Below are positions 4,981 to 11,522 of a stretch of 60,004 nt of DNA, piece by piece (positions within the stretch are counted from its first letter, which is position 1; every line of letters begins with the position of its first letter). A model generated the notes under the pieces. The model was not told where the DNA came from, searched no databases, and saw only the letters and a list, made by a program, of their open reading frames with translations. A program made the position numbers and the translations under genes. Source of the stretch: Thermodesulfobacteriota bacterium (GTDB taxonomy: Bacteria > Desulfobacterota > Desulfuromonadia > Desulfuromonadales > Geopsychrobacteraceae); assembly GCA_034717915.1 (NCBI GenBank), contig JAYEME010000162.1, positions 5,868-65,871 of the forward strand, read 5' to 3'.

Positions 4981-5001
4981 GGCAGTTCCTCAAGTAAAAA
5001 C

Positions 5002-5161
5002 TGATGCTTTCGCAAAAACTCATGGGATGGCTAAGCAAAAACTAACATATACCGTATCAGCCCAGGATAACGCAACGATCATCCCAAACTATCTCCGTTG
5101 TCTTTGTGAAAAGCAGTCATATGGATTAAGTGACTCAATGTTTGATGCCCTCGCAAAAGCT
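5002..5161. repeat. Degenerate short repeats (TGATGCTTTCGCAAAAACT-like), possible MITE remnant
   Basis: Copies at 5002-5020 and 5143-5161 (direct) and a degenerate inverted copy at about 5097-5119. Confidence 0.35.
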
Positions 5162-7444: not shown

Positions 7445-7503
7445 GTAGGGTGGGCATGGTCCACCGCCAACGAAGTATTTCAGATGGGCAGTGCCCATCC
7501 TAC
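7445..7503. repeat. REPIN (inverted pair of GTAG-REPs), family A
   Basis: GTAGGGTGGGCATGGTCCACC ... GATGGGCAGTGCCCATCCTAC. Confidence 0.88.
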
Positions 7504-7517
7504 CGTTTAGAATCAAT

Positions 7518-7538
7518 GTAGGGTGGGCACCGCCCACC
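7518..7538 (+). repeat. Single REP, family A
   Basis: GTAGGGTGGGCACCGCCCACC: GTAG tetranucleotide plus palindrome. Confidence 0.85.
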
Positions 7539-7555
7539 GGCAACCAAAATTATTG

Positions 7556-8098
7556 TTATTCCCCAAACTCGCCGGAAAAATCAATCCCTCCACCCCAATC
7601 ATCAGGATAGGTTCCCTGGGTAACGTAGCGGTGAAATGTTGAATGAGGCCAATCTGCAACGCATTTAACCAGACCATGTTTCACCGGGTTATAATGAACG
7701 TAATCGAGATGCCTTCGATAATCATCGTCATCGCGAATTTCATGTTCCCAGAACCGCCGCTGCCAGATGGAACTTTCCCGTTGCCTTATTCTGCTGTGAT
7801 TGAGCAACTCTTCTTTTTCAAACAAAGATTTTGCTTTTTTCGAGAAATTCGCCTTGATCAGCCCCCAGCGTTTTGAAAAATCACTGTCCTTTTCCGGAAG
7901 GATCCAAACGGCATGCAAATGGTCCGGTAACAGCACCCAGGCGTCAATGGTAAAGGGATGGCGGTTCTGCGTTTCAAGGATTGCAGCGCGTAAAAACCGG
8001 CGAGCATCGGGATGGGTCAGAATGGGTTGCCGCTGGTGGGTCACCAGGGTAAAGAAAAAACAGCCCCCGGCAGTCCGTGACCGGCGATAGTTCGCCAT
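7556..8098 (-). mobile_element. REP-associated tyrosine transposase (RAYT, IS200/IS605 TnpA superfamily)
   Basis: FFFTLVT, LLPDHLHAVW (HUH), IWQRRFWEH.IRD, DYVHYNPVKHG; flanked by REPs on both sides. Confidence 0.93.
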
Positions 8099-8119
8099 GG
8101 ATCCCCCCTCAAAAACAAA

Positions 8120-8152
8120 GGTGGTATTGACCGGTCAATCATCAATACCACC
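8120..8152. promoter_or_regulatory. Nested inverted repeat just upstream of the RAYT start
   Basis: GGTGGTATTGA/TCAATACCACC arms overlapping a perfect 14-bp palindrome, ATTGACCGGTCAAT (8126-8139). Confidence 0.45.
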
Positions 8153-8159
8153 ACATAAC

Positions 8160-8228
8160 GTAGGGTGGGCAATGCCCACCAGAAATCAACCAATATCAAA
8201 TCAAATTGATGGGCGGTGCCCATCCTAC
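8160..8228. repeat. REPIN, family A
   Basis: GTAGGGTGGGCAATGCCCACC ... GATGGGCGGTGCCCATCCTAC. Confidence 0.9.
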
Positions 8229-8249
8229 TAAAATATGATGTAAAAACCC

Positions 8250-8316
8250 GTAGGGTGGGCATCGCCCACCAGAAACCTACATTGTGAAAATGCATGATGG
8301 GCGGTGCCCATCCTAC
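8250..8316. repeat. REPIN, family A, abutting the nrdG stop codon
   Basis: GTAGGGTGGGCATCGCCCACC ... GATGGGCGGTGCCCATCCTAC. Confidence 0.9.
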
Positions 8317-9021
8317 TTAAATTCCCCGCACCTGCACCTGATCAACGTACGCTTCGGCCTGCGCTGACAGGGTCATAATCTGTTCCGGCTGATAGGTGTC
8401 GTACTGTTGCCACTCTTCAATCATGGCATGTTCCGGAACGTACTGCTGCAGCACCCAGAGCGGGGCATCTCTGAGCAGTTCACCGATTTCGGCAATCTCC
8501 TTTTCACCGACCAGATAAGGAATGCAGGTGGTACGGAACTCGCTTTCGATCTCTGCCTGCTTCAGCAACTCGACCGTTTGTCTTAACGCTTCGGTATTCA
8601 CCGGTACAGTATGTAACTCGTTGTAACGGCTGAGACTGGTTTTCATATCAATAGCAAAATAATCGACCAGCTGCTTGTCCAACAACTGGTCGATTACATC
8701 AGGAGCCAATCCGTTACTATCGAGTTTGACTTGTAGATTTCTCTCTTTCAGCAGGGATAAAAATGCCGGCAGACCAGAATCGATGGTGGGTTCTCCGCCC
8801 GATATCACAACCCCATCGATAAAACCCTCACGCTTTTTCAGGTCTGCCAGCAACTCATCAAGGGGGTAATCTGGAAAGCTGTCAGGATCCAGAACCAACC
8901 CGGCATTGTGACAAAAAGGACAGGTCAGATTGCAACTGCCAGTAAACACCAACGAAGCAACCCGCCCGGGAAAATCGAGCAAACTGGTTCCCTGAAAACC
9001 TTTGATCCGAATCGTTTTCAG
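8317..9021 (-). CDS. nrdG: Anaerobic ribonucleotide reductase activating enzyme (radical SAM)
   Basis: CNLTCPFCHN (CxxxCxxC), DGVVISGGEPT. The conserved IKGFQGTSLLDFPG N-terminus extends upstream of the track start (8982) to a CTG at 9021 that follows AAGGAG. Confidence 0.92.
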   Translation of the reverse strand: MKTIRIKGFQGTSLLDFPGRVASLVFTGSCNLTCPFCHNAGLVLDPDSFPDYPLDELLADLKKREGFIDGVVISGGEPTIDSGLPAFLSLLKERNLQVKLDSNGLAPDVIDQLLDKQLVDYFAIDMKTSLSRYNELHTVPVNTEALRQTVELLKQAEIESEFRTTCIPYLVGEKEIAEIGELLRDAPLWVLQQYVPEHAMIEEWQQYDTYQPEQIMTLSAQAEAYVDQVQVRGI

Positions 9022-9164
9022 TGTTTTTGCTCCTTGGGTGCCACAACATATTCAGAGCGCTCTTTAAACTCTTCCTTTTTGCCGCGATTCCACTGTTGAA
9101 CGGGTCGAAAAAAACCACAGACCCGTGAATAAACTTCAGTTTTCCCATCACACTTTGTTGCCAT
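9018..9164 (-). CDS. Stand-alone NrdD glycyl-radical domain (48 aa), the second piece of a split class III RNR
   Basis: Manual translation MATKCDGKTEVYSRVCGFFRPVQQWNRGKKEEFKERSEYVVAPKEQKH; AGGAGG RBS at 9171-9176. Matches the EVYSRVxGYxRPVxxWNxGKxEEF C-terminus of NrdD, which the upstream nrdD lacks. Confidence 0.92.
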   Translation of the reverse strand: MATKCDGKTEVYSRVCGFFRPVQQWNRGKKEEFKERSEYVVAPKEQKH

Positions 9165-9222
9165 TGCGAACCTCCTCACTTTTCAGTTAGTGGTGAATGT
9201 TTGTGTCATGTTATGGATGACA

Positions 9223-11211
9223 CTAGGCCGCCTGTCCCTCCTGATGGTGGGGGCAGGAAAAATGTTCACCCGCTATGTAGCCATGCACCGGGCAAATAGT
9301 AAAAGTTGGACTCAAGGTAAAATAGGGGAGATGGAAATTTTCAGAAATTCGCTTAACCAGAAGCCGCGCACTGCGCCAATCCTCCAACCGCTCTCCCAGA
9401 AAACCGTGAAATACCGTACCGCCGGTATAAAGGGTCTGCATCCCGTCCTGATGGGTTAAGGCCTCATAAATATCTTCAGTTATCCCAACCGGCAGTTGAG
9501 TTGAATTTGTATAGTAGGGCTCTTCATCTCCGGCACAAATAATCTCGGGATAGCTCTGTCGATCACGATTAGCGAGTCGGAAACTGGTTCCCTCTGCCGG
9601 GGTTGCTTCCAAATTATAGAGATGCCCGGTCTCTTCCTGGAACGCCCCAAGCTGTTTGCGCATATATTCAAGGGTTGCCTGGGATAGAGCCTGACCTTCA
9701 TCACTCTCGATCCCGCTGCCAAACAAGTTGAGACAGGCCTCATGCATACCGATCAAGCCGATGGTAGAGAAGTGGTTATCCCAGAAGTTGCCGCTCCGCT
9801 CACGAATTGCCGACAGGTAAAACTTACTGTAGGGATAAAGACCATCGGCAGTAAAACGCTCCAACTGCTTACGCTTAATTTCCAGCGACTGAAATGCCAG
9901 CTTCATCAATTTGCTGATCCGGGCAAAGAACTCACCCTTATCATTGGCGAGATAGGCAGCCCGTGGCAGGTTAATGGTGACGACGCCAATCGATCCGGTC
10001 ATCGGGTTGGAGCCAAACAGTCCACCTCCGCGCCGGCGCAGTTCACGATTATCAAGGCGTAGCCGACAACACATGGAACGGGCATCTTCTGGATCCATAT
10101 CGGAATTGACAAAATTACTGAAGTAGGGAATCCCGTATTTCGCCGTCATCTCCCAGACAGGGCGAAGTCGATCGCTCTCCCAGTCAAGATCTTTAGTAAT
10201 GTTATAGGTTGGAATCGGAAAAGAAAAAATCCGCCCCGAAGAGTCGCCCTGCATCATCACTTCACAGAAAGCCCGATTCAGCATATCCATTTCGGACTGA
10301 AATTCGCTGTAGCAACGATCCATCAATTCGCCGCCGATGACCACCGCCTCTTGAGCCATATTCGACGGCACCATCATATCCATAGTGATATTGGTGAATG
10401 GCGTCTGGAACCCGACCCGGGTCGGCACATTCATATTGAAAACGAACTCCTGCAGTGACTGCAACACTTCAACATAGCTGAGTTTATCGTAGGCAATGAA
10501 GGGTGCCAGCAGCGTATCGAAGCTGGCAAATGCCTGAGCACCGGCTGCTTCTCCCTGCAGGGTATAGAAGAAATTGACCGACTGCCCCAAAGCGGTGCGG
10601 AAATGTTTCGGTGGAGCGCTTTGGACTTTTCCGTAAGCTCCGGTAAATCCTTTTAACAGCAGATCCTTCAGATCCCAGCCACAGCAGTAAACCGACAACA
10701 TTCCCAGATCGTGGATATGAAATTCGCCATCACGATGGGCATCGGCAATGTCATCAGGATAGATTTTATTCAACCAGTAGTTGCTGGTAATATTGGCGGC
10801 AATATGATTGTTAAGCCCTTGCAACGAGTAACCCATATTGGCATTCTCGTTAACCCGCCAGTCTTCGCGCACCAGGTAGGAATCTATTGATTCAATCGAC
10901 TCGCGCATGAATTCGCGGGTCTGGCGCAAGCTTTCGTGTTGTTTGCGATAGAGAATGTAGGTTTTGGCCGTTTTCGCATGGCCATTTTCGATCAGAATCT
11001 TTTCAACCAGATCCTGTACGTTTTCGACGGTTGGAACCCGTCCATCTTTATAGAGGACAGAAAGGATCCCGCCAACCTGGCGGGTGATATCAGAAACTCT
11101 CTCAAAATCATCACCACCAACAGACCGAACAGCCTTGATAATAGCCTGAGAAATTTTATCTTCAACATACGGAACCAGACGACCGTCACGTTTACGAATA
11201 AACTCTACCAT
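9223..11211 (-). CDS. nrdD: Class III anaerobic ribonucleoside-triphosphate reductase, catalytic part (ATP cone plus barrel), lacking the glycyl-radical tail
   Basis: IRKRDG ATP cone, NENAN, HIHDL, SMCCRL finger loop, LEATPAEGTS, YYTNS, YTGGTVFH; ends at CPVHGY...CPHHQEGQAA*. ATG at 11211 preferred over the track start at 11223. Confidence 0.95.
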   Translation of the reverse strand: MVEFIRKRDGRLVPYVEDKISQAIIKAVRSVGGDDFERVSDITRQVGGILSVLYKDGRVPTVENVQDLVEKILIENGHAKTAKTYILYRKQHESLRQTREFMRESIESIDSYLVREDWRVNENANMGYSLQGLNNHIAANITSNYWLNKIYPDDIADAHRDGEFHIHDLGMLSVYCCGWDLKDLLLKGFTGAYGKVQSAPPKHFRTALGQSVNFFYTLQGEAAGAQAFASFDTLLAPFIAYDKLSYVEVLQSLQEFVFNMNVPTRVGFQTPFTNITMDMMVPSNMAQEAVVIGGELMDRCYSEFQSEMDMLNRAFCEVMMQGDSSGRIFSFPIPTYNITKDLDWESDRLRPVWEMTAKYGIPYFSNFVNSDMDPEDARSMCCRLRLDNRELRRRGGGLFGSNPMTGSIGVVTINLPRAAYLANDKGEFFARISKLMKLAFQSLEIKRKQLERFTADGLYPYSKFYLSAIRERSGNFWDNHFSTIGLIGMHEACLNLFGSGIESDEGQALSQATLEYMRKQLGAFQEETGHLYNLEATPAEGTSFRLANRDRQSYPEIICAGDEEPYYTNSTQLPVGITEDIYEALTHQDGMQTLYTGGTVFHGFLGERLEDWRSARLLVKRISENFHLPYFTLSPTFTICPVHGYIAGEHFSCPHHQEGQAA

Positions 11212-11315: not shown

Positions 11316-11363
11316 TCACAACATCTAGTATATTTTTTACTATCTCAACACAATATATTGTCA
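11316..11363. promoter_or_regulatory. Tandem NrdR boxes upstream of nrdD
   Basis: TCACAACATCTAGTAT (11316-11331) and ACACAATATATTGTCA (11348-11363), 32 bp apart, match acaCwAtATaTwGtgt; weaker third site at 11370-11385. Confidence 0.8.
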
Positions 11364-11522
11364 ATCAACTGTGAATATATTGTGGACATAAAGGGTTAAG
11401 TTCCAGCAATTACGACAGCTTTTCGAGGGACTCTTAAAGTGATGATTTAACCAACAGATTGGATATAAAAATGTGGGGATAAGAAGAGAAAAGAACAAGG
11501 GATCTTGTAAATATGTATGGTT

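Follow-up and report, generated by a model that had tools for sequence, protein, structure and literature searches.

The 60,004-nt window, that is, the whole stretch of DNA analyzed, carries a class III ribonucleotide reductase (RNR) locus in which the reductase is encoded in two pieces. Its features are as follows.

9223..11211, minus strand: nrdD body, 662 aa (ATG at 11211, TAG at 9225-9223)
9247..9294, minus strand: partial zinc ribbon of the nrdD body, C640-x2-H643...C653-P-H655-H656
9165..9222, minus strand: non-coding spacer of 58 nt between nrdD and the peptide gene
9171..9176, minus strand: Shine-Dalgarno sequence (AGGAGG) for the peptide gene, 6 nt upstream of its ATG at 9164
9018..9164, minus strand: gene for the putative glycyl-radical peptide, 48 aa (ATG at 9164, TGA at 9020-9018)
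8317..9021, minus strand: nrdG activase, NrdG2 type, 234 aa (TIGR02495, 179 bits, cut-off 131.15)
11317..11363, minus strand: pair of sites resembling NrdR boxes upstream of nrdD (spacing 32 bp, 2 mismatches each)

All genes are on the minus strand in the order nrdD-peptide-nrdG. An earlier note on this DNA, which gave no strand, described an NrdD followed, after a 58-nt spacer, by a separate 48-aa gene with its own AGGAGG, and this is confirmed here. It also held that the two genes differ in frame and that a second stop follows the first; indeed, the peptide gene lies in the +1 frame of nrdD, whose TAG is followed four codons later by another in-frame stop. NrdG, the cognate radical-SAM activase, is encoded directly downstream. 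Its start is likely a CTG that overlaps the peptide TGA by 4 nt, and the resulting CTGA is present in 30/30 loci of the family. Sites resembling the NrdR-box consensus occur in 54 of 55 regions upstream of nrdD in relatives (a raw count, with no shuffle control), and nrdR was not found in this assembly, which is 96% complete. A promoter scan returned 5 sites against 5.1 expected and none inside the nrdD/peptide spacer, and we therefore claim no internal promoter for the peptide gene.

The nrdD body matches PRK08270 (1017 bits, cut-off 548), TIGR02487 (512.8 bits, cut-off 326.35) and PF13597 (586.9 bits, cut-off 26.2). It has an ATP cone (PF03477, residues 4-93) and a finger loop, SMCCRL at 379-384, with C381/C382; M380-C381-C382-R383 is invariant across 31 bodies and corresponds to one of the two finger-loop classes, MGCR and MCCR, distinguished in section 2.5 of PMC9669993. 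The chain ends ...CPVHGYIAGEHFSCPHHQEGQAA, and a motif scan found no R[VI]xG[YF] in its 662 residues. In published passages on one-chain class III NrdD, the radical domain forms the C-terminal end of the reductase chain itself; here the loop is located on the next gene. This nrdD is the sole copy in the genome, which also encodes class I and class II RNRs, so that NrdD need not be essential in this organism. An AlphaFold2 model of the body, built from a shallow 31-row alignment, had a mean pLDDT of 58.9.

The 48-aa peptide contains the motif RVCG, whose Gly17 (codon 9116-9114) is likely the glycyl-radical site, and a Cys at position 5 (codon 9152-9150). RVxG is invariant or nearly so in relatives and agrees with RVCGY, the motif that a passage of PMC13450708 gives for the radical loop. 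The Pfam NRDD profile covers the two products in a complementary and contiguous manner (positions 1-526 on the body, 526-562 on the peptide); thus, nothing is missing between them, in agreement with the earlier note's view that the spacer is not lost NrdD coding sequence. In Pfam and NCBIfam, the peptide matches NrdD models only (E up to 0.01) and not the radical domain family of pyruvate formate-lyase (PFL), and a sequence search found no relative of it in PDB. Its core has a raw pN/pS of 0.066 (80 sequences; pS is saturated, at 0.845), a pattern by which the peptide gene is under purifying selection. The suggestion that the peptide is the missing radical domain holds for the Gly loop, but not for the whole domain, since three of the four zinc ligands are on the body. 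One residue counts against a two-chain enzyme: Gly17 is followed by Phe, and in the P. copri enzyme the residue after the radical Gly is a highly conserved, hydrogen-bonded Tyr (PMC11226230, in part).

Peptide matches were found in 63/72 genomes of the family, and 67/67 matches lie within open frames of 48-138 aa. Among 80 relative loci in all, Malonomonas rubra and Geothermobacter hydrogeniphilus included, the split is present in each of the 76 informative ones, with no continuous nrdD there; whether relatives share the split was a check that the earlier note had proposed. These loci were chosen by peptide patterns and are kin, and the counts are therefore not independent. At the level of the order, the peptide occurs in 124/131 genomes and the body in 124/131, and no fused form of this NrdD type was found among 124 genomes. 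In a search for longer proteins, fused NrdD appeared with weaker scores alone, the best full-length E being 1e-8 (weak evidence).

These data bear on two alternative explanations. An assembly error or a decaying pseudogene, for which the class I and II enzymes would stand in, has a negligible probability and was rejected: contigs of 4/4 runs, all from one study, span the junction without an indel (this DNA may itself come from two of the runs), the split is order-wide, the relatives' bodies are intact and 75-95% identical, and the peptide is under purifying selection. The idea that read-through, frameshift or ribosomal bypass yields a single chain draws on the collinear halves that are contiguous in the NRDD profile, and we give it next to no weight. 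Spacers across relatives vary freely in length (18-290 nt) and frame (21/19/36) and cannot be aligned, the nrdD stops are of all three kinds, and, by inspection of the loci, the peptide ATG is preceded by purine-rich sites. An intein or intron was also excluded, because 58 nt leave no room for it.

We compared the zinc sites of fused and split proteins, with ligand roles taken from the T. maritima NrdD motif CxxxHx6CxxC (a passage in PMC4493059). The body has C640, H643 and C653, and the Cys that is the fourth ligand in one-chain relatives is replaced; this position is Cys in 24/24 fused proteins and in 0/73 split bodies (0/69 in a second count). Cys5, present on 80/80 peptides, aligns with the fourth-ligand Cys of the fused proteins. 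By this alignment, the split cuts through the zinc site and the fourth-ligand Cys has moved to the peptide, where Cys5 is probably the fourth zinc ligand, so that a four-ligand site is predicted to need both chains. His655 is His or Cys in 71/73 bodies, but may be inherited rather than selected, as the fused sister L221 carries CPHC. In a structure prediction of the NrdD-peptide complex, which the earlier note had suggested, the pair scored 0.80 against 0.00 for the best of 3 controls, although likeness to solved one-chain NrdD structures may explain this score. This mark was reached by 116/157 solved complexes and 2/215 mismatched pairs. Separate runs had at least 84% of contacts in common, with a partner pLDDT of at least 73; the output gives no information on a Cys5-zinc contact.

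We conclude, with a probability of roughly 85%, that this class III RNR consists of two separate gene products, the 662-aa body and the 48-aa peptide. The earlier note had called it obligately two-piece, and the sole nrdD, the order-wide split and the purifying selection on the peptide are in accord with this. In the mechanism we propose, a strong start of its own would drive translation of the peptide, and NrdG would follow from the weak, coupled CTG. NrdG and SAM would take hydrogen from Gly17. Peptide residues 9-12 would pair with body residues 636-640 and 648-653, Cys5 would join C640/H643/C653 on zinc, and the Gly loop would enter the barrel, where the radical would be passed to a finger-loop Cys. 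While the peptide is unbound, His655 may hold the zinc. Made synthetically, so small a peptide would also serve as a substrate for NrdG and help to clarify the access of the activase to the buried Gly. For a widespread group of anaerobic RNRs, annotation and expression would change, in that the body alone would be inactive.

The solved relatives are one-chain NrdD proteins with NrdG, of the PRK08270/MCCR type (P. copri 8P23, T. maritima 4COI/4U3E, phage T4 1H78). The ATP cone, barrel, MCCR finger loop, zinc ribbon, RVxG loop and adjacent NrdG2 are common to both, but here a separate 48-aa product carries the Gly loop together with the fourth zinc Cys. Small proteins that carry only a radical loop and act in trans are known in GrcA/YfiD of E. 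coli and Y06I of phage T4, and the present peptide resembles them also in being phage-borne. However, GrcA is PFL-like, has 127 aa and backs up full-length PFL, whereas the peptide is NrdD-like, has about 48 aa and a zinc-site Cys, and serves a sole NrdD body; this body always lacks a loop, which only the peptide can provide. According to passages in a 2026 review, formate lyases are the sole class of glycyl-radical enzymes with identified spare parts (PMC13450708), and both this text and PMC8683613, in the parts available, state as open whether such parts exist beyond PFL. A natural 48-aa radical subunit makes this question directly testable. A second parallel is NrdJa/NrdJb of P. aeruginosa and others, a natural two-gene class II RNR cut before the C-terminal module (passages in PMC9669993 and PMC4860495). 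It differs in being B12-dependent, and NrdJb is a folded chain with IscU-like and zinc-finger parts that has redox cysteines and is no radical carrier. No earlier description of a split NrdD was found in the literature searched, a scope outside which Siedow 1999 and Wei 2014 fall.

The peptide also occurs alone. An extra lone copy is present in 15 genomes, and the body is encoded in 0/44 viral records that carry the peptide; GenBank phages gave 2 peptide matches. These lone phage copies favour an action of the peptide in trans. They could instead be decoys that tie up the host NrdG or body and help neither, a reading we consider unlikely. Consistent with it, the phage-borne copies are more diverged than host copies (raw pN/pS 0.27 versus 0.066), the full core pattern is unmatched in 10/44 viral copies, and two of the 44 are broken by a premature TAA. 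Yet both the Cys and the radical Gly are kept in 34/44 viral copies and in 14/14 scored prophage copies, which argues against decoys, since one would expect the Gly to be lost from an inhibitor. In addition, the supply of a radical part by a phage has a working precedent in T4 Y06I (PMC8683613, in part). The lone copies suggest a phage auxiliary gene of very small size, which is absent from PHROGs.

Splitting is not confined to this lineage. On an unrooted tree, forced changes imply that NrdD was split or re-fused at least 4 times. Cupriavidus necator H16 pHG1, which is in a separate clade, also has a split locus, with a 676-aa body without RxxG, a 66-aa small gene (H16_RS32675) and nrdG. In this clade the bodies retain all four zinc ligands (10/10), whereas here the fourth Cys is on the peptide. 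The C. necator NrdDG is essential for complete denitrification (PMC2864759, in part), and the passages available from the literature on the pHG1 reductase name NrdD and NrdG only. RefSeq names both pHG1 reductase-locus genes as reductase. The fused members L222 and L223 are nested inside the split clade of pHG1, which shows that the pieces and a single chain are interchangeable.

The C. necator enzyme raises a further alternative, that the radical sits on the body itself, at the CxxHG Gly (G644 in this NrdD, G650 in that of C. necator), and that the peptide is only structural or regulatory. Siedow et al. 1999 reportedly found that G650A in the 76.2-kDa H16 NrdD abolished function, and named G650 as the radical site. 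By sequence, the 676-aa H16 protein has a mass of 76.2 kDa and a Gly at 650, within CPTHGY; G644 is nearly invariant in 31 bodies. We regard this alternative as very improbable. The CxxHG Gly is kept in 24/24 fused proteins that have RxxG as well, it is located in the zinc ribbon beside a ligand, and it is the peptide RVxG that is near-invariant and matches the radical loop motif. The loss of function by G650A may reflect damage to the peptide-binding zinc site, by which a classic mutant could be read anew.

What the split means under oxygen is less certain. The part destroyed by oxygen may be replaceable, because the split is order-wide and phages carry the peptide alone. The earlier note suggested that oxygen destroys only a cheap, exchangeable peptide. 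In such a repair route, a fresh peptide would take the place of the oxygen-cleaved one while the 662-aa body stays in use; we hold it only tentatively, at somewhat less than even odds. A broader version has a similar standing, possible but a little short of probable: an autonomous, exchangeable radical peptide, zinc-latched by design (His as placeholder, Cys5 as latch), with oxygen costing 48 residues and not 710, temperate phages feeding the host enzyme, several origins, thousands of sequence clusters, and a misassigned published radical site in C. necator. No less plausible is that the split is a tolerated gene fission, with a permanent two-chain complex, no exchange, and the oxygen-cleaved enzyme lost whole. 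The predicted anchors of the peptide are a beta-strand (residues 9-12) and probably the zinc-ligating Cys5, both N-terminal of Gly17; free exchange is not a given, since a cleaved stub with both anchors would need release. The alternation of fused and split forms on the tree, re-fusion included, is also what a neutral change that comes easily at a flexible linker would produce. A permanent complex is opposed by the lack of fused forms of this type among 124 genomes of the order, the viral records that encode the peptide without a body, the 15 genomes with an extra copy, and the raw pN/pS of 0.25-0.27 of lone copies, by which a peptide acting in trans seems to be worth keeping.

The two-chain class III ribonucleotide reductase (RNR) is real, conserved and repeatedly evolved. 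In the window, the division of nrdD proposed in the earlier note was borne out: a body (the nrdD product without its radical Gly loop) is followed by a separate peptide gene, laid out as follows.

11211-9223, minus strand: nrdD body, 662 aa, C-terminal end ...CPVHGYIAGEHFSCPHHQEGQAA
58 nt, minus strand: nrdD-peptide spacer, containing AGGAGG 6 nt before the ATG at 9164
ATG at 9164, minus strand: peptide gene, 48 aa, RVCG with Gly17, the predicted radical site
Directly downstream of the peptide gene, minus strand: nrdG activase, passing profile TIGR02495

The different frame of the peptide and the second stop beyond the nrdD TAG were likewise found, and the spacer is not missing NrdD coding sequence, as positions 1-526 of the Pfam NRDD profile fall on the body and 526-562 on the peptide. 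The body scored above the PRK08270 and TIGR02487 thresholds and the activase above that of TIGR02495. In the read check, contigs of 4/4 runs span the junction with no indel; these runs belong to one study, and two are perhaps the source of the window DNA itself. No NrdD pieces occur elsewhere in the assembly, which also encodes class I and class II RNRs. NrdR-box-like sites lie 5' of nrdD at 11317-11385 (minus strand), and likewise in 54/55 relatives; nrdR was looked for in the assembly and not found.

The split extends to relatives. Eighty loci, the best from named genomes, were compared; the nearest are of Desulfuromusa and further Geopsychrobacteraceae, followed by other members of the Desulfuromonadales (start mis-called in one, L170, and tails poor in two). 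The nrdD end is present in 76 of the 80, and all 76 are split, with spacers of 18-290 nt and frames distributed 21/19/36. An overlapping set of 30 family loci includes 28 with the end of nrdD; their spacers measure 29-188 nt and the frames divide 7/12/9. The peptide is matched in 63 of 72 family genomes; there are 67 matches, each within an open frame of 48-138 aa. In the class sample, peptide and body were each found in 124/131 genomes of the order; no peptide match at E up to 6e-13 lies within a frame longer than 432 aa, frame lengths covering all but 17 weak matches. A single match in the order is fused, the 739-aa G386:C2, and this is a second copy of more distant kind. For the peptide core, 80 sequences give a raw pN/pS of 0.066; pS is saturated here, and the loci had been picked by peptide pattern. 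Because the split is order-wide, spacer and frame vary freely and peptide pN/pS is low, assembly artefact, gene decay and recoding are ruled out; the split of the window's type is old and fixed.

The longest spacers, 174-188 nt (L012, L021, L022 and L026), resemble inserted palindromic repeats. Clusters of 28-34 nt palindromic repeats flank, on both sides, a Y1 transposase gene of the window (PF01797, 7556-8098, minus strand, within 7445-8322), an arrangement resembling that of a REP-associated transposase; one repeat hairpin lies directly 3' of the nrdG stop.

One-chain relatives, i.e., proteins with body and Gly loop fused, carry C-x2-H-G-Y...C-P-x-C-x3-T-E-V-Y-S-R, with the last Cys in 24/24. 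The zinc role of such motifs is taken from the T. maritima structure paper (PMC4493059). At the fourth-ligand position, 0/73 split bodies have Cys; in 80/80 peptides a Cys precedes TEVYSR at the corresponding distance. This Cys was outside the search patterns used to pick loci, and in an alignment with six fused proteins it lines up with their fourth Cys. Judged from these sequences, the break between body and peptide runs through the predicted zinc site (C640, H643 and C653 on the body), the fourth Cys being relocated to the peptide (Cys5). Two positions beyond C653, 66/73 split bodies have His and 5/73 have Cys. Since His is rare at this position in fused proteins (2/24), it may hold zinc while the peptide is absent; it may also simply be inherited, since the fused sister L221 has it.

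A model of body 100-662 with zinc and peptide scored 0.80 versus 0.00 for the best control; the benchmark mark for this score was reached by 116/157 solved complexes and 2/215 mismatched pairs. The runs had at least 84% of contacts in common and partner pLDDT of at least 73, and the best-defined modeled contacts join peptide 7-13 with body 636-641 and 646-653. A pass by halves of a split gene can stem from likeness to solved one-chain enzymes. The model output names no zinc ligands, the Cys-zinc contact being a prediction from sequence.

Given what is established about the chemistry of glycyl-radical enzymes (GREs) and NrdG, we infer, at a probability of roughly 85%, that the radical would be formed on Gly17, the peptide docking via strand pairing and shared zinc, with transfer to a finger-loop Cys. 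Residue 18 (9113-9111, minus strand), following the radical Gly, is Phe in 24/24 aligned peptides; P. copri NrdD has a conserved, hydrogen-bonded Tyr there, according to PMC11226230. Exchange of the peptide after oxygen damage is a more tentative proposal. The predicted anchors are N-terminal of the oxygen cut; therefore, the cleaved stub would have to leave before exchange. The system would work like an NrdD with a part resembling GrcA/YfiD, the spare-part protein of pyruvate formate-lyase, yet the peptide is no GrcA, and the enzyme differs from one-chain NrdD in having two chains. PMC13450708 (2026) names formate lyases as the sole GRE class for which spare parts have been identified, although class III RNRs are set aside in it.

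Full-text literature searches returned no description of a split NrdD or lone NrdD peptide, although the split might be mentioned in supplementary material or a thesis; the phrases 'split class III' and 'split NrdD' appeared in none of the matches listed. Related literature consulted comprises PMC9669993 (including section 2.5), PMC4390871, PMC13450708, PMC8683613, PMC9531940, PMC4860495, PMC4493059, PMC11226230, PMC2864759, PMC2795772, PMC3019208, PMC10432549, PMC5645315 and PMC12291355. Databases label the small genes 'anaerobic ribonucleoside-triphosphate reductase'; because they are already named as the reductase, these genes count as known, and it is the arrangement that seems undescribed.

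In the phylum sample NrdD is mostly fused, with short frames in two families, f19 and f33. A third split type, here called Cupriavidus-type, is found both in Geobacter-like genomes and in 161 plasmid records (Cupriavidus, Bradyrhizobium and others); it accounts for 2,654 clusters of 30-98 aa, some possibly contig-end fragments, versus 288 for the window's type. An unrooted tree was built from 60 barrel regions, excluding zinc ribbon and tail; it included 19 of about 70 Desulfuromonadales bodies and omitted four intein-bearing f33 rows, three partial duplicates and rows missing the pattern. It requires five split/fused changes, four of which strong branches make unavoidable; a single change is compatible with 0% of 200 bootstrap trees. 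The window's clade (support 100/98) has a fused sister. Two fused proteins, L222 and L223, nest within the split Cupriavidus-type clade, their parts joined by a short linker, and are likely re-fusions. Breakpoints differ between splits: all four zinc ligands are kept on the body in f19 (6/6) and the Cupriavidus-type (10/10), and bodies of f33 and of the window's clade lack the full set. In one f33 genome a 162-aa gene (L066, 1577-2065) lies between nrdD body and peptide gene; other f33 bodies measure 1,000-1,500 aa, probably through inteins.

Plasmid pHG1 of C. necator H16 (RefSeq) is of the third type and encodes a 676-aa reductase, a 66-aa 'nrdD' and nrdG. The body (76.2 kDa) is without an RxxG motif, and the Gly of its CPTHGY is at position 650. 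Siedow et al. (1999) reportedly described a 76.2-kDa NrdD and, on the basis of a G650A mutant, assigned the radical to G650. If this holds, G650 would be a residue of the zinc ribbon, with the true radical loop encoded by the small gene. A citing paper (PMC2864759) describes H16 NrdDG as essential for complete denitrification and, for C. metallidurans, lists just Rmet_5137 and Rmet_5139. This is indirect evidence that a split enzyme functions in vivo and that the gene in the middle was overlooked in that listing.

Translation of the activase may be coupled to that of the peptide. A CTGA at 9021-9018 (minus strand), in which a putative CTG start of nrdG overlaps the peptide TGA, is kept in 30/30 family loci despite six last-codon types for five amino acids. 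In the wider set it occurs in 35/80 loci; ATG or GTG is found elsewhere in 43, and no nrdG start was found in 2. The nrdG start is therefore likely this CTG, which would leave the peptide more abundant than the activase.

Peptide genes also occur alone. At 44 IMG/VR peptide loci, neither nrdD nor nrdG was present in the fetched flanks (0/44), and a query that detects the body in bacterial genomes found it in 0/44 whole viral records, including 0/11 of those at least 90% complete. In 15 genomes of the order, a peptide gene lies apart from nrdD and nrdG. In a PHROGs scan of 72 of the 105 longest neighboring ORFs, 12 of these 15 loci have clear phage genes as neighbors (Mu-type transposition proteins, Gam, terminase, endolysin, primase, virion protein); L059 and L211 adjoin regulators or unknown families only, and the second peptide gene of L210 (5226-5400) lies beside CbbQ-type ATPase, VWA and RadC-like genes, without phage genes. 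Cys and Gly are both kept in 34/44 viral and 14/14 scored prophage copies, with raw pN/pS of 0.27 and 0.25, respectively. In two related viral records (L081/L082) the peptide gene (5001-5135) is cut short by a premature TAA immediately beyond the radical loop; the gene is therefore dispensable for some phages. Strong peptide matches were found in 0/130 class-sample genomes of other orders, an absence that could come from kinship and host range alone.

Longer stand-alone proteins, of about 100-144 aa, are encoded at L077 (5093-5404), L078 (5104-5532) and L206 (3677-4111). They have an NrdD-type Gly loop at the C-terminal end, their N-terminal part is unrelated, and nrdD is absent from the neighborhood; one of the three is carried by the ANMV-1 virus. 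In the 343-aa protein P0128, perhaps a chimeric assembly, the peptide is fused ahead of KAP NTPase and TPR domains.
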